Shown here piece by piece: positions 1-20,941 of a stretch of DNA of 64,000 nt. Source of the DNA: Thermodesulfobacteriota bacterium. GTDB taxonomy: Bacteria; Desulfobacterota; Desulfobacteria; Desulfobacterales; C00003060. The notes beneath the pieces are model-generated. The model saw only the letters and a program-made list of their open reading frames with translations, was not told the DNA's origin and made no database searches. The first letter of the stretch is position 1; the number at the start of each line of letters is the position of its first letter. The stretch spans positions 32,001 to 96,000 of the forward strand of contig JAXHVD010000003.1 in assembly GCA_034189385.1 (NCBI GenBank), read 5' to 3'. The position numbers were made by a program, and so were the translations under genes.

Positions 1-951
1 CTCAACAAACTCGCCTTTCTCCTTTACCAAGGGCCTCGTCACAGGGCCTGCCCCCACTTCTACATGGGCACCCTTCACTGTTATTCCAAGGGGATCATAG
101 GTGCGGACGAAAGGAGAGGTGAGCCGATCTGGGCTATGAACGAATTGATAGCCAAAGCGCCCCCTAACACAAAGCTCTCCTTGATTCACAGGGTTACTAT
201 AATCGCCTCTGGCTTTCACCACAGTGTTGCCACGGACGCCCAGATAAAGCCCGCAGCCGACACCGCAGTAAGGACAGATGGTTTTCACCTCCCGACTGGG
301 ATACTGGATATTCTTGGGGATTAGAGCCCCTACTGGACAGCGCTCTACGCATTCCCCACAAGAAACACACACCGATTCTCGAAACGGTTTGTCGCCAAAG
401 GTGGCGACCTTCAGGTCGTAGCCGCGATAGGCCATGTCAATGGCATCAACGCCGACGATTTCCCGGCACGTTCGGATGCATATGCCACAATGGATACACT
501 TGTTTGCATTAAAATCAAAAAACGGATTGCTGGTATCAACAGGAAGCTCCTTGGCTACTCTCTTCAACCGGTTGAGCCGCCTCTCGTCGTAGCCGATGCG
601 GTTCACAAGAGCCTGCAAACGGCAAGTACCGCTCTTTGGACAAAGCAGGCAGTTGAAATCATGGTCACTCAAGATGAGTTCAAGGGTCACACGGCGAACC
701 CTTTCGATCTCCTCATCGTCTGTGATGACCACCATGCCCTCTTCAACGGGTGTGCGGCAGGCAGGATGGAGTTTTTTCTTCTTCTCAATCTTTACCAGGC
801 ATATACGGCAAACCCCCTCAGAGGTGAGCCCAGGACAATAACACAAGGTAGGGATAAAAATCCCAGCACTTCGGGCCGCCTCCAGGATGGTCATCTCCCT
901 TCTGGCCTTTAAGTGAATCCCGTCTATTTTCAGATTGACCTCGCCGCTCAT
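1..951 (-). CDS. fdhA: Formate dehydrogenase alpha subunit, N-terminal part (NuoG-like Fe-S domains plus start of molybdopterin-oxidoreductase domain); runs off the window edge
   Basis: Not in the ORF track (no stop in window). Manual translation from ATG 951: MSGEVNLKIDG...IPTLC...CRIC...PAC; HxxxCxxCxxxxxC; two CxxCxxCxxxC motifs; TICPYCGVGC...LCVRGRFG. Confidence 0.88.
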   Translation of the reverse strand, partial: MSGEVNLKIDGIHLKARREMTILEAARSAGIFIPTLCYCPGLTSEGVCRICLVKIEKKKKLHPACRTPVEEGMVVITDDEEIERVRRVTLELILSDHDFNCLLCPKSGTCRLQALVNRIGYDERRLNRLKRVAKELPVDTSNPFFDFNANKCIHCGICIRTCREIVGVDAIDMAYRGYDLKVATFGDKPFRESVCVSCGECVERCPVGALIPKNIQYPSREVKTICPYCGVGCGLYLGVRGNTVVKARGDYSNPVNQGELCVRGRFGYQFVHSPDRLTSPFVRTYDPLGITVKGAHVEVGAGPVTRPLVKEKGEFVE

Positions 952-1055: not shown

Positions 1056-2960
1056 TCACATGGTCAGGCCCGAGATACATTCCACAGCGTTAAACTTTGT
1101 GGGACAGGCCTCCATGCATGAGCCACACTTGATGCACTTGCTCTGATCGATCTCATGAACCTGCCTTTTCCCGCCTATAATGGCGTCAACGGGACAGGCC
1201 TTCAGGCAGAGCATACATGCCTTACACCGATATTCTTTTATACGGTAAGAGATCAGAGACCTGCACACAAGGGCCCGGCACCGTTTGTCACGGATGTGCT
1301 CTTCATACTCGTCTCGGAAGTACCGAATGGTGGAGATGACAGGATTCGGCACCGTTTGTCCCAGACCACATATAGACCCAGCCTTCACAGCCTCGGCCAA
1401 TTCTAAAAGGACAGCAATGTCATCGGGCCGGCCCTCTCCTCTCGTGATATCCCTGAGAAGTTGAAACATCTGTCTGGTGCCGAGCTTGCATAAGGTGCAC
1501 TGGCCACAGGACTCGTTTTGGGCAAAATCGAGAAAATAGCGGGCCATGTTCACCATGCAGGTGCGCTCATCCATGACCAGCATGCCGCCCGAACCCATGA
1601 TGGAGCCCACTTCGGCCAATGACTCATAGTCCACGGGAAGATCCAGAAGGCTTTCAGGGATGCAACCTCCAGAAGGCCCACCAGTTTGGACAGCCTTGAA
1701 TTGTCTGTCTCCCCTAATGCCTCCGCCGATGTCGAAGATAATTTCCCTGAGGGTCGTCCCCATGGGCACCTCAACAAGGCCCGTATTCTTCACATTTCCA
1801 GACAGGGCAAATACTTTGGTCCCCTTGCTCTTCTCCGTGCCCATACTGGCAAACCAGTCCGCTCCCTTAGAGACAATGGCCGGGACGCAGGCAAAGGTCT
1901 CCACGTTATTCAAAACGGTGGGCATGCCCCATAGCCCCACTATGCTGGTGTTGGGTCGAGGCAGTGGCTTTGGAAACCCGCGTTTTCCCTCTATTGACAT
2001 CACCAGGGCAGTGGATTCCCCGCATACAAAAGCCCCTGCACCCTTAACGATCTCAATCTCAAACCCAAAACTGCTTCCCATGATCTGGGGACCCAGGAGT
2101 CCCAGGTCTGTAGCCTGAGCAATGGCCGTCGTCAGATGCCGCACAGCAAGAGGATACTCTGAGCGCACATAGATGATCCCTTTGTGGGCGCCCACGGCGT
2201 ACCCGGCAATGATCATCCCTTCCAGCACACTGTGGGGGTCGCCCTCCATGACGCTACGGTCCATGAAGGCGCCGGGGTCCCCTTCGTCACCATTGCAGAT
2301 GATATACTTTTCCTCACCCGGTGCATTTCGAGACGACTCCCACTTGCGCCCTGTGGGGAAACCTGCGCCGCCCCTTCCGCGAAGGCCGGAGTCCTTCACG
2401 CAGGCAATCACTTCGTCCGGTTGCCACCTAGCCAGGACCATGCCGGCAGCCCCGTAGCCACCTATTCTGATGTAGTCCCCAATGTCATTGGGGTCTATCA
2501 CACCGCAATTTCTCAGCACCACCTTGATTTGCTTCTGGTAAAAAGGAATTTCGTCTATGTGGCGGTGCTTCTGGCCTGTCTGGGGGTCTTCATATAGCAG
2601 CCTTTCAACACATCGCTTCTTAATGAGCGTTTCTTCCACGATCTCGGGCACATCGTCTGGTGTCACACTGTGATAGAATATGTTTTGGGGTCGTACGGTA
2701 ACAATGGGCCCTTTCTCACAAAGCCCCTGGCACCCTGTTCTTTTTACAATGATGTTCTCTTCGTTTTCCTGGGTCTTGATTTCTCTGAGGAAGGCTTCGT
2801 GGATCTGCTGGCCGCCCGATACACCACAGCCCGGCACGCCGCAAATAGTCACATAAACAGGGTCCAGCCCTTCGCTGGTGATGAGAGATTCCCTGAGGCT
2901 GTCCAAGTCATCAAGACTTGTTATGGGGGGCAAGGTGTGTTGTCTATCGGGAGTTGTCAT
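1056..2960 (-). CDS. NuoF/HydB/HylB-like NADH- and FMN-binding subunit with N-terminal [2Fe-2S] and C-terminal 2[4Fe-4S] domains
   Basis: GLRGRGGAGFPTG, CNGDEGDPGAFMDR, GAFVCGE, GGPSGG, ESCGQCTLC, two C-terminal ferredoxin motifs. Confidence 0.95.
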   Translation of the reverse strand: MTTPDRQHTLPPITSLDDLDSLRESLITSEGLDPVYVTICGVPGCGVSGGQQIHEAFLREIKTQENEENIIVKRTGCQGLCEKGPIVTVRPQNIFYHSVTPDDVPEIVEETLIKKRCVERLLYEDPQTGQKHRHIDEIPFYQKQIKVVLRNCGVIDPNDIGDYIRIGGYGAAGMVLARWQPDEVIACVKDSGLRGRGGAGFPTGRKWESSRNAPGEEKYIICNGDEGDPGAFMDRSVMEGDPHSVLEGMIIAGYAVGAHKGIIYVRSEYPLAVRHLTTAIAQATDLGLLGPQIMGSSFGFEIEIVKGAGAFVCGESTALVMSIEGKRGFPKPLPRPNTSIVGLWGMPTVLNNVETFACVPAIVSKGADWFASMGTEKSKGTKVFALSGNVKNTGLVEVPMGTTLREIIFDIGGGIRGDRQFKAVQTGGPSGGCIPESLLDLPVDYESLAEVGSIMGSGGMLVMDERTCMVNMARYFLDFAQNESCGQCTLCKLGTRQMFQLLRDITRGEGRPDDIAVLLELAEAVKAGSICGLGQTVPNPVISTIRYFRDEYEEHIRDKRCRALVCRSLISYRIKEYRCKACMLCLKACPVDAIIGGKRQVHEIDQSKCIKCGSCMEACPTKFNAVECISGLTM

Positions 2961-3469
2961 TTCTGCCCTTTTCCCCGCTCTGGCCTGGAGGTTCTTTGCC
3001 CAGCTTTGTCGCTATCTTCCTTGTCTCGGCTCAGGAGTTCATTCATCTTAAAAGCCGTCATCTTAGGATATACTTCATCATCTATCATAACCACAGGCGC
3101 CATGGCACAAGAGCCGACACAAGCAACGCGCTCAAGGCTATATTCATAGTCTCTTGTAGTCTGCCCCGTCTTTATGCCCAATCGATACTGGGCTGTTTCC
3201 AAGATGTCACTGGCACCGCGGACATGGCAGGCGGATCCTTGGCAAACTTTTACAAGGTGATCACCTCGCCGCGTGAGATAAAAGTGCGCGTAGAAAGTAG
3301 CCACACTGAAAACCTGGCTTCTGGGTAGCCTCAGGAAGGTGGCGATTTCCTTTAGCGTCTCTTCGGGCAAATAGCCGAATTCCTCTTGCACCCTTTGCAG
3401 TATGGGAACCAATGCCCCCCTTTTCCCTTCAAAGACCGCCAAAATTTTCCGCAACCGTGCCTCGATCAT
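2957..3469 (-). CDS. NuoE/HydC-like [2Fe-2S] subunit
   Basis: LQRVQEEFGYLP, VATFY, CQGSAC, CVGSC-AMAP; 4-nt overlap with the NuoF-like gene. Confidence 0.95.
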   Translation of the reverse strand: MIEARLRKILAVFEGKRGALVPILQRVQEEFGYLPEETLKEIATFLRLPRSQVFSVATFYAHFYLTRRGDHLVKVCQGSACHVRGASDILETAQYRLGIKTGQTTRDYEYSLERVACVGSCAMAPVVMIDDEVYPKMTAFKMNELLSRDKEDSDKAGQRTSRPERGKGQK

Positions 3470-3477: not shown

Positions 3478-4488
3478 CTACCGCTTTCCCTGGACAAATT
3501 GCTCGGCCAGCTCCACATCAGCAGCACTGCCAATGAAGACCGGCACCCGCTGGTGGAGATGCTCAGGTTCTATATCCAATATCCGTTCCCGCCCCGTACT
3601 GGCAGCACCCCCAGCTTGCTCCGCCACAAAGGCAAGGGGGTTGGCCTCGCACATCAGCATCAGTTTGCCGTGCGGTTTCTTGGAATCTCTGCAATCGGCA
3701 GGATACATGTGTATCCCCCCTTTGAGGAGATTACGATGGAAATCTGCCACAAGAGAGCCAGAGTAACGTTGCACATAGGGCCGATCAGTCTTGATATCAG
3801 GGGTCTTGAAGTACTCCACCACATTCTGGACGTTCTCATCCCAGAAGTAGTAATTGCCTTCATTCACGCTGTAAACCCTTCCCTTTTCCGGTATCACGAT
3901 GTTCTCGTGTGAGAGAAAAAACTCGCCTATCCTCGGCTCTAGAGTAAAGCCGTAGACGCCATTGCCGGCCGTGTAGACCATCATCGTGCTTGAGCCGTAA
4001 ATGAAATAGCCCGCAGCCACCTGTCTATGGCCAGGCTGGAGGACATCTGCCGTGAGGCCCATTTCCCCTGCGCTCTCTTTTCTGAGAATGGAGAAAACAG
4101 TGCCTGCCGCCGTATTGACATCAATGTCTGTAATGCCCCCAAGGGGTTCGAAGACCAGGATGTACGGCCCTCTTGAATACTTGGCTGCAATGGGCAGGAC
4201 GTCCGTCTCCCTTTTGGAAGCCATGCAATACAAATGGCCTGTATGACGAACGCGGTTGATGATGGCAGCATGGGCAAACTGCACCAATCTCTGGAAATGC
4301 TCTTCGTCCCCACTGTCCGTGTCAACAAAGCCGAGATCCTCTGTAAGGTTTGCCTTGTTGACCTTCTGGTCAATGATCTTGGCTGCCACCGTCAGCTCCG
4401 CTAGCAAAGCTGTAAAGGCGCCGACAGCCTCTGGGCTCTCCCTTTGCTTGACCAAGAGATGTTCTGTCACAGTAATCCCTTTGGGCAT
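3478..4488 (-). CDS. fbp: Class I fructose-1,6-bisphosphatase homologue, predicted catalytically inactive
   Basis: QVAAGY..YGSSTM, YSVNEGN, RYSGSLVADFHRNLLKGG, EANPLAF..EQAGG conserved, metal-binding motifs altered; start moved to ATG 4488 behind a GAGGAG RBS. Confidence 0.88.
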   Translation of the reverse strand: MPKGITVTEHLLVKQRESPEAVGAFTALLAELTVAAKIIDQKVNKANLTEDLGFVDTDSGDEEHFQRLVQFAHAAIINRVRHTGHLYCMASKRETDVLPIAAKYSRGPYILVFEPLGGITDIDVNTAAGTVFSILRKESAGEMGLTADVLQPGHRQVAAGYFIYGSSTMMVYTAGNGVYGFTLEPRIGEFFLSHENIVIPEKGRVYSVNEGNYYFWDENVQNVVEYFKTPDIKTDRPYVQRYSGSLVADFHRNLLKGGIHMYPADCRDSKKPHGKLMLMCEANPLAFVAEQAGGAASTGRERILDIEPEHLHQRVPVFIGSAADVELAEQFVQGKR

Positions 4489-4549: not shown

Positions 4550-5458
4550 TCAGGCACCAGGATACTGAACCGACTGCAAATGGGGCTCCGCTGCCAGAAA
4601 ATCCTGCACCCCCGAAATATCTATCTCATTATTGCCAAGGCCCAGGATCTCTTCGTCTAAGCCCATACTCAGTCCCAGGAGTTGAGGGTAGAGGATGGAT
4701 GGCACGTGGTGGTTTGTGCCCCCATTTGTTACCATCTCCTTCTGGATGGTCTCAAACTGCAACTGGCAAAACACGCACCCCGTTGTCAGATAGTGGGCAC
4801 CTGCACTTTTGGCATCTGTCAGTTTCTTTTCGGTAAAATCCAAAGAAAGGGCGTCGTTGGTCCCCAACAATGGGGCGCCACAGCACTCCAGCTTGGTGGA
4901 CCAGTCCACGCTCTCTGCCCCCGTCAGTTCCACCAGTTGATCAAACAAGGAGGGGGCCACGGGGTCGTCAAATTGAACGATCGGACTGGGCCGCAAGGCG
5001 TGACAGCCGTAATGGGTGGCAATCTTCAGGTCCTCGTAAGGCCTTAAGACTTTCTCCTTGATGGCATCAGTGCCCACATCGTGAAAAAGAACGCTGAGAA
5101 GATGCCTTACCTGAACCTTCGCCTCATATTTCAGACCTTCTTTGGCAAGGATTCTATTGACCTCCTCTCGCAACTGCCGGTCTTCTTTCATGAGATACTC
5201 GGCCATGCGGAATGTGCCGTAGCCGCACTTGCACAAAACGACCAGGTTTAGGTTCTCCCTTTCAGACAGGGCCAAATTCCTGGCCGAGGAGAGCACAAAG
5301 GCCTTTAGGTCGATGTTTCTCAATGGATACCCGCAACAGTTAAACTCTGCGATGTCCACCAGCGTCACACCAAGTTTTTCAAGCACCGCCCTTGAGGCTG
5401 TTTCATATTGCCTGAGTCGGATGGGAATGTTGCATCCAAGGAATATGGCAAGCTTCAT
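4550..5458 (-). CDS. hdrB: Heterodisulfide reductase subunit B-like protein (two CCG domains)
   Basis: FLGCNIP, FNCCG, HYGCHALRP, ECCGAP, GCVFCQLQF. Confidence 0.93.
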   Translation of the reverse strand: MKLAIFLGCNIPIRLRQYETASRAVLEKLGVTLVDIAEFNCCGYPLRNIDLKAFVLSSARNLALSERENLNLVVLCKCGYGTFRMAEYLMKEDRQLREEVNRILAKEGLKYEAKVQVRHLLSVLFHDVGTDAIKEKVLRPYEDLKIATHYGCHALRPSPIVQFDDPVAPSLFDQLVELTGAESVDWSTKLECCGAPLLGTNDALSLDFTEKKLTDAKSAGAHYLTTGCVFCQLQFETIQKEMVTNGGTNHHVPSILYPQLLGLSMGLDEEILGLGNNEIDISGVQDFLAAEPHLQSVQYPGA

Positions 5459-5477
5459 GGGCTTCTCCCCTTATCTC

Positions 5478-7163
5478 CTATGCAGCCTTACTTTTGATCT
5501 GTTTCAAGGCCAGGTTCTTGAGTTCATAGAGCACGTCCGTAACGCGCACGCCCTGTGGGCAGTGTTCCTGACACATGTAACATGTCACACAGTCCCAAAG
5601 CATGTTGGAGCCAATAGCCAGATCCTTTTGTTTCAAAGCAAGGCAGTGCATAATCTCGTGAGGAAGGAGTCCCAGCACAGCCTTTGGATCTTCATAGTTT
5701 CCAACAACAGGACAAACGTTTGTACAGGTCTGACAGCCGAAGCAATAGGAAAAGGTACTTGCTTGACCAGAAATCTCAAGGGCACTGGCAAAGGCCTTGT
5801 CCACAGGGGTCAGGGAGATTGGTTTCTCCTTGAGATGCGCCAAATCGAATTGAGCCCCCATCGTCTCTCTGGCCCAGGCCTCGGGTTTGGGATAGCCTCT
5901 TTGAGCTAACCGCTCATTTAGTTCTGACCAGGCCTTTTCCAGGTTGATGCCTATGGGACAGACATCGGTACAGCGATGGCAATCGGTGCAGATATGGCTT
6001 CCTTCCTGAATCCTGGTAAGCCTTTTCTTGCTTAGCCAATTTCCCGCAAGAAGGGCCCTCAACGCGGCCAGTTTTTCAGAGGGCAGGATGTTGGGATTGG
6101 GAATCTCGTCAAAGGCCACTGCCACAGAACAGCGTAGGGTACAATCCCCACAGTGCGTGCAAGCATCGATCTGCAGGGCCTGTCTGGTTGCCATATTCGC
6201 AGGATCGGATTTCGCCTCATCCATGACACTATCTGCCAGAAAGTACACAGGGGTTGAGAAAATGTGGAAAAACTTGCTAAAGGGAAGGTAGGCCAAACCG
6301 ATGAAGCAAGCCAGAAAATGAAGATACCATAGCCCTGTGTAAACCTTTGCCCGGTCCGTCAACAGGGCCACGGGCTTCAGTGCCCTCGAGGCGGAATAGC
6401 TCATAAATGCCCATTGGGGCCTGGAATGGCAGCTTGCACAGCTCATTTCATGCAGTTCTTGGCCTTGGTCCAGTGTTTCTTTGTCAAAGGGCCCTTTCAC
6501 ATTAGGAGACACCACACCGAAGCTTTGCACCCAGTAAGCTTCAAGGGCCTTGCTTTCTTCCGCCTCTTCTTCTCCAAGGCCAGCATACTCATCCACCATC
6601 TCTTTATATATTGAATGAGATAGGATCTTTGTCGCTTCTAAGAAAAAACCGGATATCATGATGACGCCCAACACGGCGATGGCATAGACATCCATAGACG
6701 CATTTTTCGGTCGAGGCTTTTTCAAAAAGAACCTACGATAAACGGCCATCCCGAGCCCCACAAGCACGACCAGACCAAAAAAGTCTCGCAAAAACATGAA
6801 AGGATTGAGTGTAGAGTAATATTCATCAAAGACAACAGCAGTGACCACTTTGTCGAGTCCATGCATCAGTAAAAGAAACATGAAACCGCCATATATACAT
6901 ATATGGGCAAGCCAGCGGATGAAGTCCTTCTTCAACAACCAGACCTGAAAGAGCACATCCCAAAAAAGGACCTTCACCACTGTGCCAATCCTGGGACTGC
7001 ATAGGCTTGAGAGGATACCCCTAGCTGCTGCCCACACCCTGGCCAAGCTGGAAATCTCCGAAGCCTCAGGGCCGACTTTCCATCTAAACCAGTTTGATAC
7101 CCTGTAGACCAAGCCGACTGCGAAAACAGCCAAAGAGGTGTATAGGGCAACGTCATAAAACAT
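5478..7163 (-). CDS. Membrane NarI-like cytochrome b domain with an inserted CxxCH motif, fused to two HdrC-like 4Fe-4S dicluster domains
   Basis: About 5 hydrophobic helices; His pairs AHICIYGGFMFLLLMH and LHFL...KFFH; CASCH; CTHCGDC, CTDCHRC, CFGCQTC, WDCVTCYMCQEHCPQGV. Confidence 0.88.
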   Translation of the reverse strand: MFYDVALYTSLAVFAVGLVYRVSNWFRWKVGPEASEISSLARVWAAARGILSSLCSPRIGTVVKVLFWDVLFQVWLLKKDFIRWLAHICIYGGFMFLLLMHGLDKVVTAVVFDEYYSTLNPFMFLRDFFGLVVLVGLGMAVYRRFFLKKPRPKNASMDVYAIAVLGVIMISGFFLEATKILSHSIYKEMVDEYAGLGEEEAEESKALEAYWVQSFGVVSPNVKGPFDKETLDQGQELHEMSCASCHSRPQWAFMSYSASRALKPVALLTDRAKVYTGLWYLHFLACFIGLAYLPFSKFFHIFSTPVYFLADSVMDEAKSDPANMATRQALQIDACTHCGDCTLRCSVAVAFDEIPNPNILPSEKLAALRALLAGNWLSKKRLTRIQEGSHICTDCHRCTDVCPIGINLEKAWSELNERLAQRGYPKPEAWARETMGAQFDLAHLKEKPISLTPVDKAFASALEISGQASTFSYCFGCQTCTNVCPVVGNYEDPKAVLGLLPHEIMHCLALKQKDLAIGSNMLWDCVTCYMCQEHCPQGVRVTDVLYELKNLALKQIKSKAA

Positions 7164-7281: not shown

Positions 7282-8181
7282 CTATAATTCCAGCCACGAA
7301 TCCGAATAGAGGGAATGCCCTAGGAGTACCTTTGCCGTCTTTACGTAATCCAACTCCGCCCTTCCAAGGGTTTCCATGTTGACATCCTTTCCCTCTACCA
7401 CAGATGTGACCAGAGAGGCGATATCCGATCTGTTACCCCGGGCAATGTCATGGAGATCCTTGTCAAAGGCATCCACAATACACGATTTCATGCCAAAGGC
7501 GTCCAGCATGATCATGTACGTCTGGTTCAAGATGGGGCGAAGGTGTTCCGGCGCCCCGTTAGAGACGTTAGATAGCCCGCACGTGGACCTGCAACCAGGG
7601 ACCAGAATTTCTGCTATCATATCCAGCTCCGACATGAATTGATTGCATTCCAGTAACTGGTTTTGCTGAACATTTACGGGCGTAATGATAGGATCGACCC
7701 AAATATCTTCTCCTGCCACCCCGGCCTCTGCCGCCCTTTGGAGGATGTCGGCGGCCAGCAGCCCCCGCTCAGCTGCATCCCGAGGCATTCCTTCAGGCCC
7801 CCAGAGTAGGGCAACCATGCCTGCATCGTACTGCGTCACCAAGGGGATCTGTCCCTCCATCCTCTCGGGACGGCACATGATAGAATTGATGACCGCCTTG
7901 CCCCCTTTATTATTGTACACCTTGAGGCCGGCCTCAATGGCGTTGACGTTGGTGGTGTCGAGATAAAGAGGAAGATCGACCACTTCCTGGACGGTCTTCA
8001 CCATCCATTCCATCAATTCCTCGCCCCCTTTTCTGGCAGGACCCAGATTCACATCTATGTAATCGACGCCGGCTTCGGCCTCGGCTTCAGCCAGTTCCTG
8101 GATCGGTTTCTGGTCCCGGTCCTTCATGGCCTGGCCGATCCTCTTCACCATGATATTCAGATTTTCGCCTATCAGAATCAT
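7282..8181 (-). CDS. acsE: Methyltetrahydrofolate:corrinoid Fe-S protein methyltransferase
   Basis: MILIGENLN start, YIDVNLG, LYLDTTN, INS, GLSNVS pterin-binding barrel; acs context. Confidence 0.92.
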   Translation of the reverse strand: MILIGENLNIMVKRIGQAMKDRDQKPIQELAEAEAEAGVDYIDVNLGPARKGGEELMEWMVKTVQEVVDLPLYLDTTNVNAIEAGLKVYNNKGGKAVINSIMCRPERMEGQIPLVTQYDAGMVALLWGPEGMPRDAAERGLLAADILQRAAEAGVAGEDIWVDPIITPVNVQQNQLLECNQFMSELDMIAEILVPGCRSTCGLSNVSNGAPEHLRPILNQTYMIMLDAFGMKSCIVDAFDKDLHDIARGNRSDIASLVTSVVEGKDVNMETLGRAELDYVKTAKVLLGHSLYSDSWLEL

Positions 8182-8199
8182 GCCCCCCCCCTATTAGAT

Positions 8200-8306
8200 A
8201 AGTGCCTAACGTGAAATAAGATGTGCTAAAGTGTCTAAAGTTACAGGTCTCGCAGAGCCTTTACTGCGACCGCAACTTTAGCTCACTCTAGACATTTTAG
8301 GCACTT
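8200..8306. repeat. Intergenic palindromic element built from degenerate 9-10-mers (AGTGCCTAA / AGTGAGCTAA), copy 1
   Basis: Left arm AAGTGCCTAACGTGAAATAAGATGTGCTAAAGTGTCTAAAGTT; right arm AACTTTAGCTCACTCTAGACATTTTAGGCACTT is its approximate reverse complement. Confidence 0.75.
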
Positions 8307-8318
8307 CTGCTCACTCTC

Positions 8319-9668
8319 CTATGCCTTCCATTCCTTGAGATAGGCCGGGATATGCGCCGATTCCCTTGGTCCAACCAGGACTTCCCAGTCGCTCCCCAGC
8401 TCCTCTTCAAGATCCCCTAATATGGCTGCAGCATAGCCGGGTATGACTACCTTTCTGTGGTTGATCTTATCTCCAATGCCGCACTTCTTGATCGCCATGC
8501 CCACCACGTCTCCTACAAACTTACCAGCAGCCCAAGCCGTAAGGACAGACAGACCTTCGGTGTCCACAATAATCAACCAAGCCGGCACGCGACTGGTTTC
8601 AATCTCCCCGGACACGATAAAGTAGGTCAGAGAAAAATTGGACGTTACCAAGACAGGCGAGTTTTCCGTGGGCCCCCCGATTTCATAGATGCCTGGCGAC
8701 GTGGCCATGGGGCGCTGGGGATCTGTGTAAATGTTCATGCGGGCCAGCAGAAGGGGAAACAGGCTGTGTCCCTGTAAGTCTGAAAGCAAGACAATACCGC
8801 CGTACTTGGCTATACACATAGATGCCAGCAATGTCTCTTTCATGAGATCATCGGTCATCTCACAAGGCAGGCAAATGGTGGGAAAACCAAGGGCCTTGTT
8901 CTTCTTTAAGAGGGCTGCCCGGCGGATGAATATCTGATCTTCAAAGACCTTTCTTGGAGCCCTGGCCCCAGAGTCGATCACCAGATCGTTTAACCCGGCG
9001 GCTGTCAGTCTTGTGGTCAGCTCTGAGACGTCGTCAAGGCCATCTCCCTTGACCGTTAATGCACAGCCATGTTCTTTGGCAACTCCTGACATAGCGTCGG
9101 CATTCTCCTTGGTGGCCGCATACATGAGAGGTTTACAGTCCCCACAGGCTTTCAAGCCCGCCTCCATGACAGTGGCGTCTTCGGTCATGAGGATGATGCC
9201 CCCCTCTGTCTCGTTTTTTACTCTTGTGGCCAGTGCCGCGAACTTGCCAGCATCGCCTGATAGGGATTTCACGGCAACAAGGTCTGCCTTCAAGGTAAGG
9301 CCCACCCGCTCATATTCCAGGGTCTTGAATCGCTCAAGACGCCCGGCCACGTCATCATCAGCCATCTCATCTGTGACAACGACGCCTATGCCAGTTGGAT
9401 GCAAGAAGGTCTTTTCGTGGCGGAAAAGCACTGTTTCGCCGCCCATCTTAAATTTTCGTTCTCCCGTACCGATCTCAACGATCCTGATGGGTGGGGCCGA
9501 GGCATCAGCCAGCTCTGCCTTGGATTCTTCTGTGACATAAGGGCAGGCCGCCAGTTCCGCCTTGCCTGCTGCTAGGTTCATTGCAAATGCCAGACAGGTG
9601 GGCACTCCGCACTCCCCACAATTCGTCTTAGGTAGGAGTTTGTAAATCTGAATTCCCGTCAACGCCAT
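8319..9668 (-). CDS. acsC: Corrinoid Fe-S protein large subunit (CODH/ACS gamma)
   Basis: LPKTNCGECGVPTCLAFA..ACP, IYTDPQRP, TSNFSLTYF, SVLTAWAAGKF. Confidence 0.97.
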   Translation of the reverse strand: MALTGIQIYKLLPKTNCGECGVPTCLAFAMNLAAGKAELAACPYVTEESKAELADASAPPIRIVEIGTGERKFKMGGETVLFRHEKTFLHPTGIGVVVTDEMADDDVAGRLERFKTLEYERVGLTLKADLVAVKSLSGDAGKFAALATRVKNETEGGIILMTEDATVMEAGLKACGDCKPLMYAATKENADAMSGVAKEHGCALTVKGDGLDDVSELTTRLTAAGLNDLVIDSGARAPRKVFEDQIFIRRAALLKKNKALGFPTICLPCEMTDDLMKETLLASMCIAKYGGIVLLSDLQGHSLFPLLLARMNIYTDPQRPMATSPGIYEIGGPTENSPVLVTSNFSLTYFIVSGEIETSRVPAWLIIVDTEGLSVLTAWAAGKFVGDVVGMAIKKCGIGDKINHRKVVIPGYAAAILGDLEEELGSDWEVLVGPRESAHIPAYLKEWKA

Positions 9669-9689
9669 ATCATCCCTCCGTTGTTGAAG

Positions 9690-9802
9690 AAGTGCCCAAA
9701 GTGAGCTAGAGTATGTAAAGTCAGAAAAACAAGACCAAGTAATTTCAAGACTGCTTTCAACTCCTCAACTCAAGGCACTTCAGGCATTTTAGCTCACTCT
9801 AG
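9690..9802. repeat. Intergenic palindromic element built from degenerate 9-10-mers, copy 2
   Basis: AAGTGCCCAAAGTGAGCTAGAGTATGTAAAGT ... ACTCAAGGCACTTCAGGCATTTTAGCTCACTCTAG; same units as 8200-8306. Confidence 0.72.
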
Positions 9803-9807
9803 AAAGC

Positions 9808-12015
9808 CTATTCCAAAATAGGATCCATGGACAGCGCCGGATGACCTTTCTCCTCGAGAAAAGAAAGGATCTCCTCTTCGCTTGTCCCCACCGTTTCATC
9901 AGCAATCATGTCGGGAAGATCGGGGATGCCGATTTCTTCTGCCCTCTTCTTGAGGCGGTCTAAGACCTCTTCTTTCAGACGTTTTGGCATCCAAACCAGC
10001 CGTTTGATCCCACCGTCGCCGCTGATCCATTTCCTCTGCGTAAGATTGTATTTGCCGTGTCCCACAAAGCCTGGCACACTCATGCCGCCGCCGATGGTTC
10101 CCGCAAGGGTAGTGAATTTCATGCCGCAGGGCGTCATCCCCATGTAATCCCGGTCTACGGTCATGACGCCGTTACAAATAGGAAGTATGGCAGCGATGCA
10201 CTCGCAACACCCGCACGTGGTCATGGGGTCATGGACAATGCTGTAGAAATTGTAGTGATCCAATGCCTGCCGTGAGGCCTTGTAGAGAAAGGCATTGCAG
10301 CCCTTCCATTGACCAAGGTTGGCGTCTAGACATTCCCCCTTATCCACAGGCTGGTTCGGACCAGTGGGATTGATCTCATAAGAAGCCTTGCAGTCCATCC
10401 AGTTATAGGCCCCACACAGTCCCGTACGTTCGGGACTGATAATACAGACATGGTTCGGTGCAAAGGACTGGCACAAGGTGCAGGAGTAAAACACTTCCGT
10501 TGTCTCGTCTGTCATCCCCTCGATGCGCGCGTCCCTTACTTGGTATACTTGCCTTGCCTTTTCCACCATCTCCTTGACTTTGTCTTCTTCCGTATACAGC
10601 TTGATCTGGACCTTGTCAAAGATGGCTCCAAAATCTTGATGAAACTTTGCATGGAGGATGTCTCCGATGTGTTTGATCTTCAGCCCTTTTCCCGCTGCCG
10701 CCTTGGACATCCTTATCCAGGCAATGTCTCTTTGGCCGATGTGCATGAGACCCTGGGCATAGTTGACAAAATGATGAATCTGCCGTTCCAGGATAGGCTC
10801 GAAGTCCTCCTGCATCTTCCTGCCAGCAAACTCGGCCAAAATGGCCAGAGGCAGCCTTGCCCCTGGTTCCACGTCGTCCACATCAGGGCCAAAGACCTCG
10901 ATCTTGCCATCTTCCACTTGATCCATTTCCCTGGTAGTCACCCATTCCACAGCCGGGGTTCTACCACCGCCGAACTCCACGTAGAGATCGTCCTTGCGGA
11001 CCCGTTCCCCTTCAAAGGCTGGCCCGTAGGACACCGGTACGGGCACTTTTGCCACGCTTACCTTCAGGCCTCTAACCTCAATGGCCCTGGCTACCAGTTC
11101 ATTGTGGGGGACATTGGAGACCACATGTTCATAGGTACAAATGCCCGTTGGCCGGATCTCCGGGATCGCCGTATCGGCAATGACCGGAAAACCCCAATTG
11201 ATGGCACCGGCTGCATTGGCATACCACTCATCGGTTACCATGCCCAGGGGCAAAGCAAAGGCAAAGATACGATCCTTGTTGTAGAGCAGGTTCCGTCTGA
11301 AATCCCCTGGCTTCACCCCCCCAAAGGACATGGCGGCCCGTGTGGCAAATCCCATGGCAAATATGGTGGCCGTGTACTCTGGACCGAAGGAGACCAGCCG
11401 TGTCCCCCATCCGATCTGTATCCCCGCCTCCACCAACTGTTCAGACATGGTACGCCCTTCGTGATCGGCACACATGAAGACATAGAGATTCTTCTCCTGA
11501 AGCTCCTGGGCAAGCTGGACAGCGATCTCTTTGGTGGGAGGCGCCCCAAGAATGGCTGCAAAGCCTGGCGCGGTGCCGTCAACAAATTCAACACCCCGCT
11601 TGCGCAGTATGATGTCGTCAGCAGCCCCCAACCAGAGGTTGCCGTCAGCCGGCCCTTCCGTCTTGGTATAGAAATCAGGGGCCTCTAGATACCGGATGGC
11701 CTCAATCACCTCTTCTGCAAAAAGTGTGGCCATGCCAGCTTCCAGGGCCGGTGCCAGATAGGGAAGCCACACCTCATCGGCCACCATCTCCGGCAGCAAG
11801 GACCTGCACCGACCAAGGACCTCTTCCACATCTTTGAGGTTTTTCACAGCAATGCCCAAGATGCCATAGATGATGGGAAGATAATAGGCTGTGTTGGGGA
11901 ATCCGATTTCCTGTTCAGGTCCCCATTTCTCCATGGCTGCTTGATGCTTGTCTTGTGCCCGTTGGACGATCTTGTGGGCACCACGAATCGCTGCCGAGCA
12001 GATGATTTTTGACAC
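9808..12015 (-). CDS. acsB: Acetyl-CoA synthase (ACS) catalytic subunit
   Basis: FYSCTLCQSFAPNHVC, GLCGA, PMTTCGCCEC A-cluster motifs; GTG start. Confidence 0.97.
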   Translation of the reverse strand: MSKIICSAAIRGAHKIVQRAQDKHQAAMEKWGPEQEIGFPNTAYYLPIIYGILGIAVKNLKDVEEVLGRCRSLLPEMVADEVWLPYLAPALEAGMATLFAEEVIEAIRYLEAPDFYTKTEGPADGNLWLGAADDIILRKRGVEFVDGTAPGFAAILGAPPTKEIAVQLAQELQEKNLYVFMCADHEGRTMSEQLVEAGIQIGWGTRLVSFGPEYTATIFAMGFATRAAMSFGGVKPGDFRRNLLYNKDRIFAFALPLGMVTDEWYANAAGAINWGFPVIADTAIPEIRPTGICTYEHVVSNVPHNELVARAIEVRGLKVSVAKVPVPVSYGPAFEGERVRKDDLYVEFGGGRTPAVEWVTTREMDQVEDGKIEVFGPDVDDVEPGARLPLAILAEFAGRKMQEDFEPILERQIHHFVNYAQGLMHIGQRDIAWIRMSKAAAGKGLKIKHIGDILHAKFHQDFGAIFDKVQIKLYTEEDKVKEMVEKARQVYQVRDARIEGMTDETTEVFYSCTLCQSFAPNHVCIISPERTGLCGAYNWMDCKASYEINPTGPNQPVDKGECLDANLGQWKGCNAFLYKASRQALDHYNFYSIVHDPMTTCGCCECIAAILPICNGVMTVDRDYMGMTPCGMKFTTLAGTIGGGMSVPGFVGHGKYNLTQRKWISGDGGIKRLVWMPKRLKEEVLDRLKKRAEEIGIPDLPDMIADETVGTSEEEILSFLEEKGHPALSMDPILE

Positions 12016-12117
12016 CTTTCCACTACCTCGTCTGTTTGAGTTAGCCTTTAGCGCCTATCGACCTGGATACGCGCCGCACAACAGATGAAGGGTCTACCGC
12101 TCACGGCCACGGTGACA

Positions 12118-13065
12118 TCAGTTTGCCATCAAATCAGTGACGAAACCTCTGACCAGTTGAATAGCCTTTGGATGACGCATGATGAGGATATCTCCTCCCG
12201 CCAGCAGGAGCAAGAGCGCTGTCATGGCCTCAAGGAGGACGCCTCTTTTCAAAGGATCGCCCAACAAGGGGGCTTGCTCCGTGCTCAGTCTCGCCTCTTT
12301 TACCTTCCACACCTCCTTAGCCAAGTTGCACACAACGGGAAACTGGAGCCTCTCGTCCTCCTGGGTCAGGGCTGCCATCCGGTCTCTTTCCATGACGGAA
12401 TAACAATACTCCAATCCATATCCCAGCCCTGCCACAGTGGGATCTACAACAATGCCCTCGTCAGGCACGCCTAGGTTTCCCAACAGGATGTTCAGCTGTT
12501 TTGCCAGGTTGATATCAATGGGCGAAGAAGCAGCAATGGCGTGTTTATAGGCTATGGCAGCTGCGCCCAAAGCCTTGTGGCTATCTTCTTCCACGGGGCC
12601 GAGGATGAGGCTTTCTTCAGCGCAGGCCTCTGCCACCATCTTCAAGACCTCCGTATCCTTTTCCACGTTCCCGCTTCCCCACACCAAGACAGGGACTTCC
12701 ACGGCAGCAGCCACCTTCTTGGTCACCTCCACGGCCTGTTCAGCTGAGGCATTTTGGGCATTGGGGTCTGTGCTGGCCAACTGCAATGCCACCATCTCTG
12801 CCCCGTATACGGACACACACTTCTGGGCCCATGCTGCCGGGTCATTGATGACATCGGAAAACGGCTCCACTACCGCTTCAGGCCAGTCCTCAGGCGGCGC
12901 ATCATATACGTCCATGGCAATGACTGGCCGGTGGGGCATTTCTCCTTCAAAGAGATAAAAGGGATAGGAGGTCTCTCCTCCCACAGTGATTCGGTTCGCA
13001 TCTTTGCCCAACGGGATCTCCTTGATGACACCATTGTACGATATCTTCGGTGCTTCAAATACCAT
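12118..13065 (-). CDS. acsD: Corrinoid Fe-S protein small subunit (CODH/ACS delta)
   Basis: DINLAKQLN, GLGYGLEY.YSVMER.R.AAL, MRHP; start ATG 13065 with GAGGAG RBS. Confidence 0.96.
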   Translation of the reverse strand: MVFEAPKISYNGVIKEIPLGKDANRITVGGETSYPFYLFEGEMPHRPVIAMDVYDAPPEDWPEAVVEPFSDVINDPAAWAQKCVSVYGAEMVALQLASTDPNAQNASAEQAVEVTKKVAAAVEVPVLVWGSGNVEKDTEVLKMVAEACAEESLILGPVEEDSHKALGAAAIAYKHAIAASSPIDINLAKQLNILLGNLGVPDEGIVVDPTVAGLGYGLEYCYSVMERDRMAALTQEDERLQFPVVCNLAKEVWKVKEARLSTEQAPLLGDPLKRGVLLEAMTALLLLLAGGDILIMRHPKAIQLVRGFVTDLMAN

Positions 13066-13173
13066 ATTTACTCCTCTCCTCACGTCTTTAGGTTAGCTGA
13101 TAACCGATGACTGCTTCCGCTTAAAGGACCACGGCCAAAGCTTGTGTCATGGGGCACCAATCAAACACCGCCC

Positions 13174-14049
13174 CTACATACCTAATTCATCCAAGATGGA
13201 AGGAATCTTGTTCTCCCATCCCAAGGCCATGATGTGCACGCCGTCGCAAAGATCCTTCATCCCCTTGATCAGGCGAACAGCAATGTCCATACTGGCTTGC
13301 GCCTTATCCTCCGATGCCTTCATCTCGTCAATCAGGGGCTCTGGAACAAAGACCCCTGCCACGTTCTTGTTCATGTAGCGGGCCATACCCACCGATTTGA
13401 GCAAGATGACGCCACCTAACACCTTGGCACCAAAACCCTCCACACGCTTCATGAATTTCTCAAAGATATCCAAGTCATAGACGGCCTGGGTCTGAAAAAA
13501 CTTGGCGCCCGCCTCGATCTTCTTCTCCATCTTTATGATCTGCAGCTCCAGGGCAGCTTCATTATCTGCCCCGGGGTTTACAACGGCCCCGCACAAGAAG
13601 TGGGGCGCTCCCTTGAGTTCCTTTCCAGCCATGTCAACACCGGAATGCAGCTTCCTCGCAGCTTCCAGGAGTGTCACAGAGTCCAAATCGAAAACCGGTT
13701 TGGCCTTGGGATGATCCCCCAGCGTGGGATGGTCACCAGTGAGGGCAAGCATATTCCTGATCCCAAGAACCCAGCCGCTTAAGAGATCTGCCTGCAAGGC
13801 GAGCCTGTTGCGATCCCTGCACGTGACCTGATAGATGGGGTCGATTCCCCTGTCCTTTAGCAGATGACAGACCGCCATGGAGCCCAGGCGCATGACCGAG
13901 CTCTGTAGGTCTGTCACGTTCACAGCATCTACTCGATCTTTAATGATATCAGCATCTTTTAGCAAATGCTCTACATCCGTTCCCTTGCCAGGTCCGACCT
14001 CGGCAGTCACCAAGAACTTCCCTGATTCTAAGGCTTCTCTAAAGCTCAT
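13174..14049 (-). CDS. metF: Methylenetetrahydrofolate reductase, copy 2
   Basis: VTAEVGPGKG, AVNVTD, TCRDRNRLALQ, LTGDHP, KIEAGAKFFQTQ, GVHIM. Confidence 0.93.
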   Translation of the reverse strand: MSFREALESGKFLVTAEVGPGKGTDVEHLLKDADIIKDRVDAVNVTDLQSSVMRLGSMAVCHLLKDRGIDPIYQVTCRDRNRLALQADLLSGWVLGIRNMLALTGDHPTLGDHPKAKPVFDLDSVTLLEAARKLHSGVDMAGKELKGAPHFLCGAVVNPGADNEAALELQIIKMEKKIEAGAKFFQTQAVYDLDIFEKFMKRVEGFGAKVLGGVILLKSVGMARYMNKNVAGVFVPEPLIDEMKASEDKAQASMDIAVRLIKGMKDLCDGVHIMALGWENKIPSILDELGM

Positions 14050-14153
14050 GGCTCACCCCTTTACATGGACCATCTTCCATGGAAAATTAACGATTACAAG
14101 GCTCAAAAAAGAAAGCATCTCTTGGGGGGTTCAAAATACTTCGTCATCAATCG

Positions 14154-14819
14154 TCAATCCGCTTGCGTCTTTTCCACCTGCCGCAGATCCTCCCTGACTA
14201 CCCTTCCTGGGTGCACAGGCCAGTCTTTCACCTGGGGCCTTTCCTTGAGATAATGCAGCATGTCTAACCGCTTGAGGGCATAGTATATCTCCTGCCAGGC
14301 ACAGGGACGGTCCCTGGAGACCTCGCATTTCCCTCCTGATGCCCCTCCACATGCGCCATTGAGAAGGCCCTTGGCACATCGGGTCACGGGACACACACCA
14401 CCCGTCCTCCACAGGATACAGTCGCCACAGGCCTGGCAGTTCTCTGTCCAGACGCCTGTCTCCTTTTCCACCCCGATGAACTGGGTATTCAGGGCCGGCA
14501 AGACCGGTTTGTCAGGAAAACGACTGGCAACGGCTTGAACGCCATTGCCACAGGCCATGGAGAGGATAGCTTCATGGTTACCTATCTTCTCTTCCAGCCG
14601 ATCGATAAATCTATCGGCGCATTGTCTTGGGATGGTCGTCTTCTCGACAAAGATCTCCTTGTTTTCAGAAACAAGGGCCTCTGCGAGATTGTCTACCTGC
14701 TCTGCCCCACCGGCAGAGCAGAAGGTCACGCAGGCACCGCAACCTACCAAGAGGATCCTATGGTACGGAGCAACCATGTGCCGTATCTCTTCCATTTGCT
14801 TCTGTTCTGCAATGATCAT
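14154..14819 (-). CDS. metV: MetV-like Fe-S/Zn subunit of methylene-THF reductase, copy 2
   Basis: GCGAC...C, RQC, ACG.G, CQACGDC..GVCPVTRCAKGLLNGACGG...CEV...CAW. Confidence 0.9.
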   Translation of the reverse strand: MIIAEQKQMEEIRHMVAPYHRILLVGCGACVTFCSAGGAEQVDNLAEALVSENKEIFVEKTTIPRQCADRFIDRLEEKIGNHEAILSMACGNGVQAVASRFPDKPVLPALNTQFIGVEKETGVWTENCQACGDCILWRTGGVCPVTRCAKGLLNGACGGASGGKCEVSRDRPCAWQEIYYALKRLDMLHYLKERPQVKDWPVHPGRVVREDLRQVEKTQAD

Positions 14820-14836
14820 TCTATACCTCCAAGACG

Positions 14837-16324
14837 CTATGCTTCCGAGGGCAGCGACACGACAAAAGTCGTTCCTTTACCCACCTCGCTCTCCAAGTGG
14901 ACAAAACCATTATGGGCCTCCACGATCCCCTTTACGATGGATAGCCCTAGGCCCGAGCCTGATATGCTCTTAGTTTCCTCAGTCTTGATGCGATAGAATT
15001 TCTCAAAGACCCTGTTCAAGTCCTGCGGTGGAATCCCAATACCAGTATCAACGACTTTAAACCGAATGTCTTTGCCCTTTTTACGAAGGCTCACCTCTAC
15101 CCTGCCCCCTTTCGAGGTATACTTAATAGCATTGCTGATCAAATTGACAAAGATGGCCTGCACGCCCCCCCTGTCTCCGTTAAAGGCTGGGATATCGTCT
15201 GCGACATCGAACGTGATCTCCACACCCTTTTCTTCTGCAGACAGGCGCATCAGGTCCGCTGTCCGCTCCAACTCATCAGCCATATCCAGGTTCTCAATCT
15301 TCTGAATGGATTTGCCTTCTTGAAGGCGACGATAATCCAAGATGTCGTTCACGAGGGTAATCATACCTTTGGTCTTTTCCTTGGCCTTGCTGAGCAAATC
15401 GTCCTGTTTGGGAGTCAAATCTCCGGCCAACCCGTCTAAGACAACAGAAATCTGCATCAACAGAGAACTCAAGGGGGCCTTGAGTTCGTGAGAGACCATG
15501 GAAAGAAAATCGTCCCTCAGTTTATCCATGGCACTCACGCCTGTGACGTCGTGAAACAGACTCATTGCTCCGATAACGGTTCCTGCTGCATTTTTCACAG
15601 GGTCCACGTGAACGCGAAGGGTCTTGTCTCCCACCTTCACCACCGGCTCCTCGCCGGCCATAAGCGTGATAAGGGAAGTGTCCGACTTGATGGCCCGCAC
15701 AAACAGGGACAGCAGTTCGTCTGATGCCAAACAGACAGAAACAGGGCTCCCTATGGCCTTTTCCTCGGTCAACCCAAAAAGACGAGCGGCTTCGTCATTG
15801 AACAGGACGACGTTCGTCTGCCAATCGGTGACGACAAGGCCATCGCTGAAGCTGTGGAGAATGGCCAGGAGGTTTTCGTCATAGCTCACCTTGGTCAGAG
15901 CAGCCTGCCTTTGCCGGGTCAATATCCCCAGTTGGCGTCTCAGCCGAAAGGCCTCAATGGCACGGTTTATCTTTATTTCAAAATGCTCGGGAGTGAAGGT
16001 TTTCCGAAGGCAGTCGTAGGCCCCGGCGTGCATAGCCTCTAGGGCCTCCTCCCCACAGTCTTCGGACATGGCCATAATCAGGAGTTCGGGTCGAGCCCTT
16101 TGGAGCGTCTCAATGAGCGTTATGCCTCCCTCCTTTGGAAGGTCAAGGGAAAGGAGCATAATGTCTACCTCTGCCGGATGCCTCTGAATGATGCCCAGAG
16201 CCTCTTCCACAGATTCAGCCGTCCGAACCCTATGGCCCTCGTTTAAAAGGAGCTCCCGGCATTTCTGCATCATGGCGATATCGTTTTCCGCCACCAATAC
16301 GTTTATGCTTGGCTTGATTAACAT
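14837..16324 (-). CDS. Soluble hybrid histidine kinase (atypical receiver - PAS - HisKA - HATPase)
   Basis: VSHELKAPL H-box, NLISNAIKY N-box, DTGIGIP, GSGLGL; PAS DGLVVTD...FN; no TM helix seen. Confidence 0.92.
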   Translation of the reverse strand: MLIKPSINVLVAENDIAMMQKCRELLLNEGHRVRTAESVEEALGIIQRHPAEVDIMLLSLDLPKEGGITLIETLQRARPELLIMAMSEDCGEEALEAMHAGAYDCLRKTFTPEHFEIKINRAIEAFRLRRQLGILTRQRQAALTKVSYDENLLAILHSFSDGLVVTDWQTNVVLFNDEAARLFGLTEEKAIGSPVSVCLASDELLSLFVRAIKSDTSLITLMAGEEPVVKVGDKTLRVHVDPVKNAAGTVIGAMSLFHDVTGVSAMDKLRDDFLSMVSHELKAPLSSLLMQISVVLDGLAGDLTPKQDDLLSKAKEKTKGMITLVNDILDYRRLQEGKSIQKIENLDMADELERTADLMRLSAEEKGVEITFDVADDIPAFNGDRGGVQAIFVNLISNAIKYTSKGGRVEVSLRKKGKDIRFKVVDTGIGIPPQDLNRVFEKFYRIKTEETKSISGSGLGLSIVKGIVEAHNGFVHLESEVGKGTTFVVSLPSEA

Positions 16325-16337
16325 AGACTCACAAATC

Positions 16338-16715
16338 CTAGCTTAAGAGGGCCTCCACGCGTTTCACCAGCTCTTCAGATTCAACTGGCTTGGCAATATA
16401 GTCCTCAGCCTCCGTCATGAGACCCATATGCTGTGTATAGGCTGTTCTAAAGATGGCCTGGTCCACGGCAGTGAGAAGAACCACGGGGATCTCTTTAAGT
16501 TCCGGATCTGCTTTTAGGACGACACACACATCGTATCCGTTCATCTCAGGCATCATGACGTCCAGGATGACTAGGTCAGGTTTTTCCGCCCGCACTTTCT
16601 CTAGCCCCTCCTTTCCATCATGAGCCAGAATAACCTCGTAGGACTTGCTTTCCAAAAGGAGCGCTGTGGCCTCACAAAAATCCATGTCATCGTCTACTAA
16701 CAAGACCTTCTTCAT
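16338..16715 (-). CDS. Single-domain response regulator
   Basis: VLLVDDD, ILDVMMP, LLTA, YIAKP. Confidence 0.93.
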   Translation of the reverse strand: MKKVLLVDDDMDFCEATALLLESKSYEVILAHDGKEGLEKVRAEKPDLVILDVMMPEMNGYDVCVVLKADPELKEIPVVLLTAVDQAIFRTAYTQHMGLMTEAEDYIAKPVESEELVKRVEALLS

Positions 16716-16735
16716 GGCTACCTCTGTGTTTTGTC

Positions 16736-17143
16736 TTACTCTTTTGAAATTCTTTGAATGATTTTTCCGACCCTGTCGAGTAACACGCTGCTTTCCACGG
16801 GTTTTTCCACATAATCGTCAATGTCCAGGCGCACTCCAGTCTCCAATTCGTAGCGGCGCTGGCTGACCCCTTCTTGTACTGAGCTGAGGATGATGATCGG
16901 CATGGAGGCATACTTTGCATACCTGGGGTCCTTTAAGGCCTTGCAGACCTCGAAACCATCCATGTTGGGCATCAAGAGATCCAGAAGGAGCAAATCAAAG
17001 GGCTCCTCTTTCAGCTTTGACAGACATTGCTCCCCGTCTTCGGCCAGGACCACAGCGTATCCTGCAGACTCCAATATCATCTGCAAAGTCTCCCGCATGT
17101 CAGGGTCATCGTCCACAACCAAAATCTTAGTACTTGTTCCCAT
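16736..17143 (-). CDS. Single-domain response regulator
   Basis: ILVVDDD, LLDLLMP, LSS, YVEKP; start ATG 17143 behind a G-rich RBS. Confidence 0.92.
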   Translation of the reverse strand: MGTSTKILVVDDDPDMRETLQMILESAGYAVVLAEDGEQCLSKLKEEPFDLLLLDLLMPNMDGFEVCKALKDPRYAKYASMPIIILSSVQEGVSQRRYELETGVRLDIDDYVEKPVESSVLLDRVGKIIQRISKE

Positions 17144-17212
17144 GTCATCCCCCCCTAGTTGCCTGGCCATGGGTCATCTGTTATCCCTTCTGAGCAACCC
17201 CAAAGTGAGACT

Positions 17213-18795: not shown

Positions 18796-18797
18796 GG

Positions 18798-20876: not shown

Positions 20877-20941
20877 GAAGCACTCTACTCACTTCGGCTG
20901 CTTTCGGTGTCCGTACCACGCCAGTCTCCAGGCCATGGCCA

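Follow-up and report, generated by a model that had tools for sequence, protein, structure and literature searches.

A class I fructose-1,6-bisphosphatase paralogue with a rebuilt catalytic site is encoded with a NuoE-NuoF-FdhA formate dehydrogenase module in sediment sulfate reducers

Why should a formate dehydrogenase gene cluster carry, in front of its first subunit gene, a homologue of fructose-1,6-bisphosphatase (FBPase) whose catalytic motifs are altered? The gene, here called fbp*, lies in a stretch of 64,000 nucleotides from a Thermodesulfobacteriota bacterium (contig JAXHVD010000003.1), which we refer to as the window. It stands among the following features:

3478..4488, minus strand: fbp* (P0001), class I FBPase paralogue with a rebuilt catalytic site, 336 aa
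4495..4500, minus strand: Shine-Dalgarno sequence GAGGAG, 6 nt upstream of the fbp* ATG at 4488
2957..3469, minus strand: nuoE/hydC-like 2Fe-2S subunit gene, the invariant next gene
1056..2960, minus strand: nuoF/hydB-like FMN subunit gene, with N-terminal 2Fe-2S and C-terminal 4Fe-4S domains
1..951, minus strand: 5′ part of fdhA, NuoG-like Fe-S domains and formate dehydrogenase alpha, running off the window
4550..7163, minus strand: hdrB-like and membrane hdrC-like genes, upstream, optional neighbours
7282..28981, minus strand: Wood-Ljungdahl cluster, upstream; acsE, cooS, folD, fhs and HdrA-like genes by HMM, with acsC/B/D and metF/V named from sequence without HMM support

A preliminary description had read fbp* as an intact class I FBPase homologue with a strong ribosome-binding site and a stop codon 8 nt from the nuoE ATG, and all of this is found. 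An alternative longer GTG start of the gene lies at 4557, and a promoter and terminator scan gave output at chance level. The protein matches PF00316 with 151.1 bits and PF18913 with 144.2 bits, scores 411.5 with NF006778 against a cut-off of 368, and has E. coli Fbp as its closest solved relative; automatic annotation names it an active FBPase. An AlphaFold2 model built with a deep alignment reached a pLDDT of 93.9 (39.7 for a shallow-alignment prediction) and displays the two-domain FBPase fold, matching E. coli and mammalian FBPases with TMq of 0.86–0.91 (Foldseek E of 3e-40 with 2q8m). Because that alignment is rich in canonical FBPases, the model speaks to fold compatibility and not to the geometry of the site. 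No structural match beyond ordinary FBPases stood among the top matches listed for the model, and ESM Atlas matches were confined to ordinary FBPase clusters.

The altered motifs are not private to one genome. Of the 120 best database matches, 117 share them, and 163 fetched loci, classed by three positions and including some fragments and some duplicates, separated into 112 altered, 51 canonical and 0 mixed. Among 101 near-full-length members of the altered clade, 96 are exactly 336 aa long. We compared the catalytic site between 172 distinct near-full-length clade sequences and 34 canonical ones, having dropped rows with at least 30 gaps (clade) or at least 40 gaps (canonical) and taking residue numbers from alignment to rabbit FBPase 1bk4. 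The positions that separate the two groups, and those that do not, map to the window as follows:

4282..4284, minus strand: V69 replacing Asp74; Asp in 0 of 172 clade and 34 of 34 canonical sequences
4210..4215, minus strand: K92-R93 replacing Glu97-Glu98; K92 in 172 of 172, position 98 never Glu
4126..4149, minus strand: EPLGGITD replacing DPLDGSSN; Asp121 changed to Gly in 167 and to Ala in 5 of 172
3763..3864, minus strand: N209, R241 and Y242 (Asn212, Arg243, Tyr244), 6-phosphate and dimer-interface residues, each in 172 of 172
3646..3705, minus strand: Y262, K275, M277 and E281; Tyr264 in 171, Lys274 in 168, Arg276 changed to Met in 172 and Glu280 in 172 of 172

In FBPases, D118, D121, E280 and E97 are described as metal ligands (PMC3785478); D74 and E98 are given water-related roles, D74 activating the water, and three metals are described as required (PMC5639204). 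The clade has an incomplete set of metal ligands: E97K and D121G/A run through all 172 sequences, whereas D118 stays in 171 (the window copy has Glu) and E280 in every one. D74, E98 and the 1-phosphate contacts S123 and R276 are each absent from all 172 clade sequences and present in all 34 canonical ones, and N64 is likewise retained in 0 of 172. Five of the eight charged catalytic positions that we checked are replaced throughout the clade. Eight pocket positions together carry a net charge of −6 in all 34 canonical sequences, against −1 (128 sequences), −2 (28) or 0 (16) in the clade.

Every motif quoted in the preliminary description is present (SGDEEHFQRLV, ASKR, EPLGGITD, NEGN, RYSGS, MYP, GK and KLMLMCE), and the clade shows which of the proposed alterations are general. 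Where DPLDGSSN has become EPLGGITD, the loss of D121 and S123 is clade-wide, but the initial Glu (D118E) occurs in 1 of 172 and the final Asp (N125D) in 3 of 172. Most clade members read DPLGGITN, and D118 is present even in a copy 99% identical to that of the window (L090). In KLMLMCE the Arg-to-Met change is clade-specific, but the rest is not, the intact paralogue reading KLRLMCE. The reported loss of loop acids applies to D74 and not to the D68 position, which is acidic (Glu or Asp) in 131 of 172. The claim that motifs on the fructose 6-phosphate side are kept extends to the whole clade, with N212, R243 and Y244 in all 172 sequences, Y264 in 171 and K274 in 168; we take R243 and K274 to belong to the 6-phosphate site. 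N212, Y244 and Y264 are described as 6-phosphate ligands, and D121 as also touching furanose hydroxyls (PMC10289334). Taken together, the alignment indicates that the clade has remade the half of the site that serves the metals and the 1-phosphate, and has kept the 6-phosphate half.

Two features qualify how the kept half may be read. The C1–C2 dimer contacts in Table 4 of PMC4822563 include N212, A242, R243 and Y244, so the conservation of these residues may be structural. The furanose contact of D121 is lost and the M248 and F262 positions are changed in the clade, so the ligand may no longer be a fructose phosphate. The AMP-site positions T27, T31 and Y113 are retained about as in canonical paralogues, which neither favours nor disfavours an AMP-type role.

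Could the rebuilt site catalyse something else? Lys92, D118 and E280 might make up a site with one metal or none, whose substrate would be some phosphorylated sugar or cofactor that formate dehydrogenase or the C1 pathway requires. Both K92 and M277 occur in all 172 sequences, D118 and E280 are retained, and K92 is written with both lysine codons over 77 coding sequences (AAG in 54, AAA in 23), which indicates that lysine itself is selected. However, a salt bridge that replaces a metal would probably produce the same pattern, the loop, like positions 74 and 98, varies freely, and only ordinary FBPases appear among the top structural matches listed. We consider a new enzyme improbable. The catalytic loop (residues 51–70) is the most variable region of the clade, with entropies of 1.39 and 1.22 against 0.52 and 0.43 in canonical copies of the window's genus.

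The preliminary description had favoured targeted loss of catalysis over random decay, and the pattern of selection agrees with it. Over 77 distinct clade coding sequences the median dN/dS was 0.083 and the maximum 0.247 (870 of 2,926 pairs with dS of 0.1–1.5; Nei-Gojobori), resembling the 0.067 of the intact canonical fbp of the genus (13 of 45 pairs among 10 copies; same method), and 99 positions are invariant among the 77. With catalytic residues gone and purifying selection on the gene, the clade shows the sequence pattern of a pseudoenzyme. That fbp* is a decaying passenger in its operon draws some encouragement from the window copy, which sits on a longer branch (0.20–0.23) and carries near-private changes such as D118E; for the clade, the low dN/dS, the invariant positions and the uniform length largely refute this reading, and we give it next to no credence. 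A selected function for fbp* is close to certain, and it is very probable, judging from the residues lost, that the protein is catalytically dead. RNA data came from a single run with a word share of 0.05, in which 123 of 141 contigs were less than 90% alike; the pieces listed included no long one covering fbp*.

The strongest clue to this function is the company that the gene keeps. In all 105 testable loci, which represent 80 distinct proteins, a nuoE start lies at most 350 nt downstream of fbp*; nuoF and then fdhA follow in 73 of 73 and 57 of 57 loci with enough sequence. Canonical fbp loci show nuoE in 0 of 45, nuoF in 0 of 26 and fdhA in 0 of 23. The reverse test gave the same answer: all 25 orthologous nuoE genes (at least 66% identity) directly follow fbp*, in the same 24 of 37 genus genomes, whereas paralogous nuoE loci of the genus have an FBPase gene in 0 of 27 cases (26 with at least 1.3 kb upstream). 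Co-occurrence of fbp* with NuoE-NuoF-FdhA is thus obligate and its position that of an operon gene. The module stays together when duplicated (G015), when it lies away from acs genes (L069, L070 and L121-123) and in two host lineages. The commonest gap between the fbp* stop and the nuoE start across loci is 9 nt, consistent with translational coupling; this tight spacing and the two-way linkage suggest that the product is made in step with NuoE, NuoF and FdhA, in the manner of a subunit. Since the loci are related, the counts are not independent events, and one ancient linkage could have been inherited. Apparent cases of orthologous fdhA without fbp* in G001, G017, G021, G024 and G048 were set aside, because a contig edge or N gap precedes the position where fbp* would stand.

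In G015 there are two complete fbp*-nuoE-nuoF modules (L005 and L019), one after hdrB and the other after acsE. One sub-clade has a small PF09650 gene directly upstream of fbp* (L047:524-847, L014:1094-1411).

We conclude that the function of fbp* is in all likelihood tied to the nuoE-nuoF-fdhA module, and sequence evidence tips us slightly towards a physical partnership of its product with NuoE-NuoF-FdhA. An uncontrolled complex prediction, confined to monomeric fbp*, NuoE (residues 2–150) and NuoF (38–554), scored 0.00 against a mark of 0.32, which carries no weight for or against contact. Distance correlations among fbp*, NuoE and NuoF of 0.79–0.89 are explained by shared descent. In a weak search for fusions of fbp* to a module gene, none appeared among 17 longer matches, none of which belonged to the clade.

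Linkage of this kind speaks equally for a purely structural role, in which fbp* would be a subunit or assembly factor whose oligomer organises or stabilises the NuoE-NuoF-FdhA complex with no sensing, its pocket residues being kept for folding or dimer contacts or to hold a permanently bound anion or nucleotide. That several retained residues lie at the dimer interface (PMC4822563, Table 4) suits this account, and the variability of the catalytic loop region argues against a conserved loop switch. On the other side, Y264 (171 of 172) and K274 (168 of 172) are kept outside the listed interface contacts, and the paralogous NuoE-NuoF modules of the genus manage without an FBPase gene. We regard the structural role as an unlikely explanation, though one to be taken seriously beside that of a ligand-binding subunit.

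The enzyme to which a ligand-binding fbp* subunit would belong resembles, from its domain make-up, NuoF-type bifurcating formate dehydrogenases. It shares these parts with HylABC-FdhF2 (Clostridium acidurici) and HytA-E/FdhA (C. autoethanogenum) as described in PMC5861303 and PMC6288185: a NuoE-like subunit, a NuoF-like subunit with extra Fe-S domains, and a formate dehydrogenase alpha subunit with Sec or Cys. It differs from both in having a NuoG-like part fused to FdhA, and in being led by an FBPase-fold gene, no such subunit being listed in the descriptions consulted. The window's fdhA has an in-frame TGA in DHCARL*H at G000:C23:31827-31829, just outside window position 1, and the genome encodes tRNA-Sec; among 58 linked FdhA motif matches, 55 have TGA, 2 Cys and 1 Gly (L074). 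Readthrough at the TGA means that ORF callers cut fdhA in two. A Cys-containing FdhA relative passed TIGR01591, scoring 864.9 against 666.25.

The claim that fbp* is embedded in a Wood-Ljungdahl and formate dehydrogenase cluster divides along the operon: nuoE-nuoF-fdhA is invariant, but the Wood-Ljungdahl neighbourhood is common and not obligatory. The gene just upstream of fbp* in 64 loci was acsE in 28, hdrB in 22, metF in 2 and another gene in 12. Seen beside the fhs, folD and cooS genes of the window, the module appears from its gene content to supply the CO2/formate step. Inserted in the window's Wood-Ljungdahl cluster are the membrane HdrC-like and HdrB pair (4550-7163) and a histidine kinase with two response regulators (14837-17170). 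A chorismate-binding gene is often found 3′ of fdhA (G000:C23:28080-30122; L029:8973-10229, with PF00425 and PF04715 in L029), and with an adjacent aminotransferase-like gene it may provide p-aminobenzoate for folate.

Two features of the linked subunits were considered as correlates of fbp* and rejected. The NuoF nucleotide-site motif (window about 2000-2045, minus strand) was read in 76 linked matches, as CGES in 52 of them and as CGEE in 24, and unlinked copies show both, so a rule pairing fbp* with NADP-type NuoF does not hold; presuming that this motif bears on the choice between NADP and NAD, the mix may mark a switch between the two. An insertion of about 27 residues in FdhA (conserved ends AYD and T.PLVK; window about 90-170, minus strand) occurs in 24 of 31 linked copies and in both lineages. 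Missing from the other 7, it is not an obligatory docking site.

Where did the paralogue come from? In a careful tree of 29 rows the clade is monophyletic (100/100) with a stem length of 0.39 and falls into two halves, one holding the window copy with C00003060 and S7086C20 records and the other UBA3076 and SeepSRB2 records. We take C00003060 to be Seep-SRB1c. Among 301 genomes across the class, clade-level matches occurred in the window's family only. As sister to the clade stands the canonical fbp from the genus of the window (94/84, not a starred node; unrooted tree), and grouping of the clade with the canonical fbp of the second lineage, a hypothesis chosen post hoc in the light of an earlier tree, was rejected (AU p 0.004). 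This placement and rejection make it likely, as far as the trees can tell, that fbp* arose by duplication near the window's genus and that the module was then transferred. UBA3076 is identified as Seep-SRB2, which fixes carbon via the Wood-Ljungdahl pathway (PMC10553843).

A canonical fbp was found elsewhere in the window genome, as the preliminary description had proposed to check: a class I copy on contig C20, 62% identical to fbp* and with all motifs intact. A class V FBP aldolase/phosphatase lies on C14. Among 37 genus genomes, fbp* is present in 24 (25 copies), canonical class I fbp in 17 and both in 13, six canonical copies being classed by score only. The earlier suggestion of a regulatory subunit of an active Fbp fares less well against these counts. 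In its broader form, fbp* would be an inactive or regulatory member of mixed tetramers with canonical class I FBPase, or a free sugar-phosphate buffer co-expressed with C1 genes. The identity between the two copies fits this, as does their joint presence in 13 of the 24 fbp*-bearing genus genomes, some of these classed on score alone, and in all five genomes of the second lineage. Yet the canonical gene lies beside the module in 0 of 45 loci, it was not found in 11 of the 24 fbp*-bearing genus genomes, three of which are 91–98% complete, and the second lineage keeps fbp* with a canonical fbp from another clade (AU p 0.004). We therefore think mixed tetramers or a free buffer quite improbable.

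Absence of other FBPases bears also on whether fbp* might, for all its unusual active site, still work as an FBPase and serve gluconeogenesis during carbon fixation. Neither canonical class I nor class II or V FBPase was found in 7 of the 24 fbp*-bearing genus genomes, and in G020, G052 and G012 (91–98% complete) class III was not found either; the protein also passes the NF006778 cut-off. Against activity, E97, E98, D121, D74 and R276 are all replaced in an enzyme described as requiring three metals (PMC5639204), and the window genome has two other FBPases. Moreover, G051 (97% complete) lacks fbp* as well as class I, II, III and V FBPases, so missing FBPases elsewhere do not require an active fbp*, and another route or assembly gaps must exist. 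An active fbp* strikes us as very unlikely. The gluconeogenic route in the near-complete G020, G052, G012 and G051 is unexplained; no GGDD-type PFK was seen in G020, G052 and G012, the motif being readable in 8 of 14 PFK loci.

From this evidence we propose a course of events and a mechanism. Duplication would have freed one FBPase copy. In that copy Lys92 would have taken the place of a metal ion next to D118 and E280 and so kept the pocket stable without metal, and the 6-phosphate anchor would have remained. Phosphatase activity would be absent because Lys92 probably replaces the metal and Gly117, Ile119 and Met277 dismantle the 1-phosphate site. The retained 6-phosphate residues might still hold fructose 6-phosphate or fructose 1,6-bisphosphate, and the protein would contact the NuoE-NuoF-FdhA complex, such that ligand binding would let gluconeogenesis feed back on the formate step of the Wood-Ljungdahl pathway. 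The parts of this proposal differ in standing. That the ligand is a hexose phosphate is a tentative reading of the retained residues, somewhat short of probable. We place the mechanism as a whole, in which a dead fbp* is an accessory subunit of the soluble formate dehydrogenase and tunes CO2/formate turnover through hexose-phosphate binding, at a similarly tentative level. Its most specific version, a lysine-for-metal fbp* as fructose-phosphate feedback subunit of a bifurcating formate dehydrogenase whose module later moved to Seep-SRB2, is doubtful by comparison.

Pseudoenzymes and extra subunits are already known kinds of protein. A precedent is MSMEG_2064, which comes from an unrelated family, is encoded 5′ of nuo genes and serves as a subunit of mycobacterial complex I (PMC10068793); it and the supernumerary subunits NDUFA9 and Nqo16 differ from fbp* in having other folds and belonging to a membrane complex, and their binding has been shown whereas that of fbp* is proposed. 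Mammalian FBP1 is an FBPase fold acting as a protein-binding regulator (bioRxiv 10.1101/2023.03.05.531181), but it is an active moonlighting enzyme whereas fbp* is a dedicated paralogue with a rebuilt site. Compared with class I FBPases themselves (EC 3.1.3.11; E. coli Fbp, PDB 2gq1/2q8m), fbp* shares length, fold, 6-phosphate residues, D118 and E280; it departs from them in E97K, D121G/A and R276M, in the loss of E98, D74, N64 and S123, in its variable catalytic loop and in its fixed place before nuoE. In the literature searched, with subscription literature largely outside its scope, we found no description of a dedicated dead FBPase family and none of a sugar phosphate acting allosterically where carbon enters the Wood-Ljungdahl pathway. 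The word 'fructose' is absent from the main text of PMC10553843 and 'bisphosphatase' from the supplements searched; the gene may be drawn in the S10 gene-cluster figure of that paper.

Other class I FBPases have degenerate metal sites separately from this clade (P0150, P0168, P0185, P0190, P0194, P0210, P0218 and P0238, P0150 being a 7-member cluster and P0194 coming from Hahella); some may be real pseudo-enzyme families and others errors. P0123 and P0272, of 766-779 aa, carry two FBPase-like motifs, DPLDGVTN and DPIDGSSN, and are possibly tandems of an active and an altered domain; P0123 represents 91 sequences.

Since clade proteins score above the cut-off of a curated FBPase model and are annotated as active enzymes, metabolic reconstructions can be misled by them. 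The gene occurs in sediment sulfate reducers, including UBA3076/SeepSRB2, a lineage partnered with methane-oxidising archaea. If fbp* is a true subunit or sensor, it would be a regulatory component new to NuoF-type formate dehydrogenases, which attract interest as catalysts for reducing CO2.
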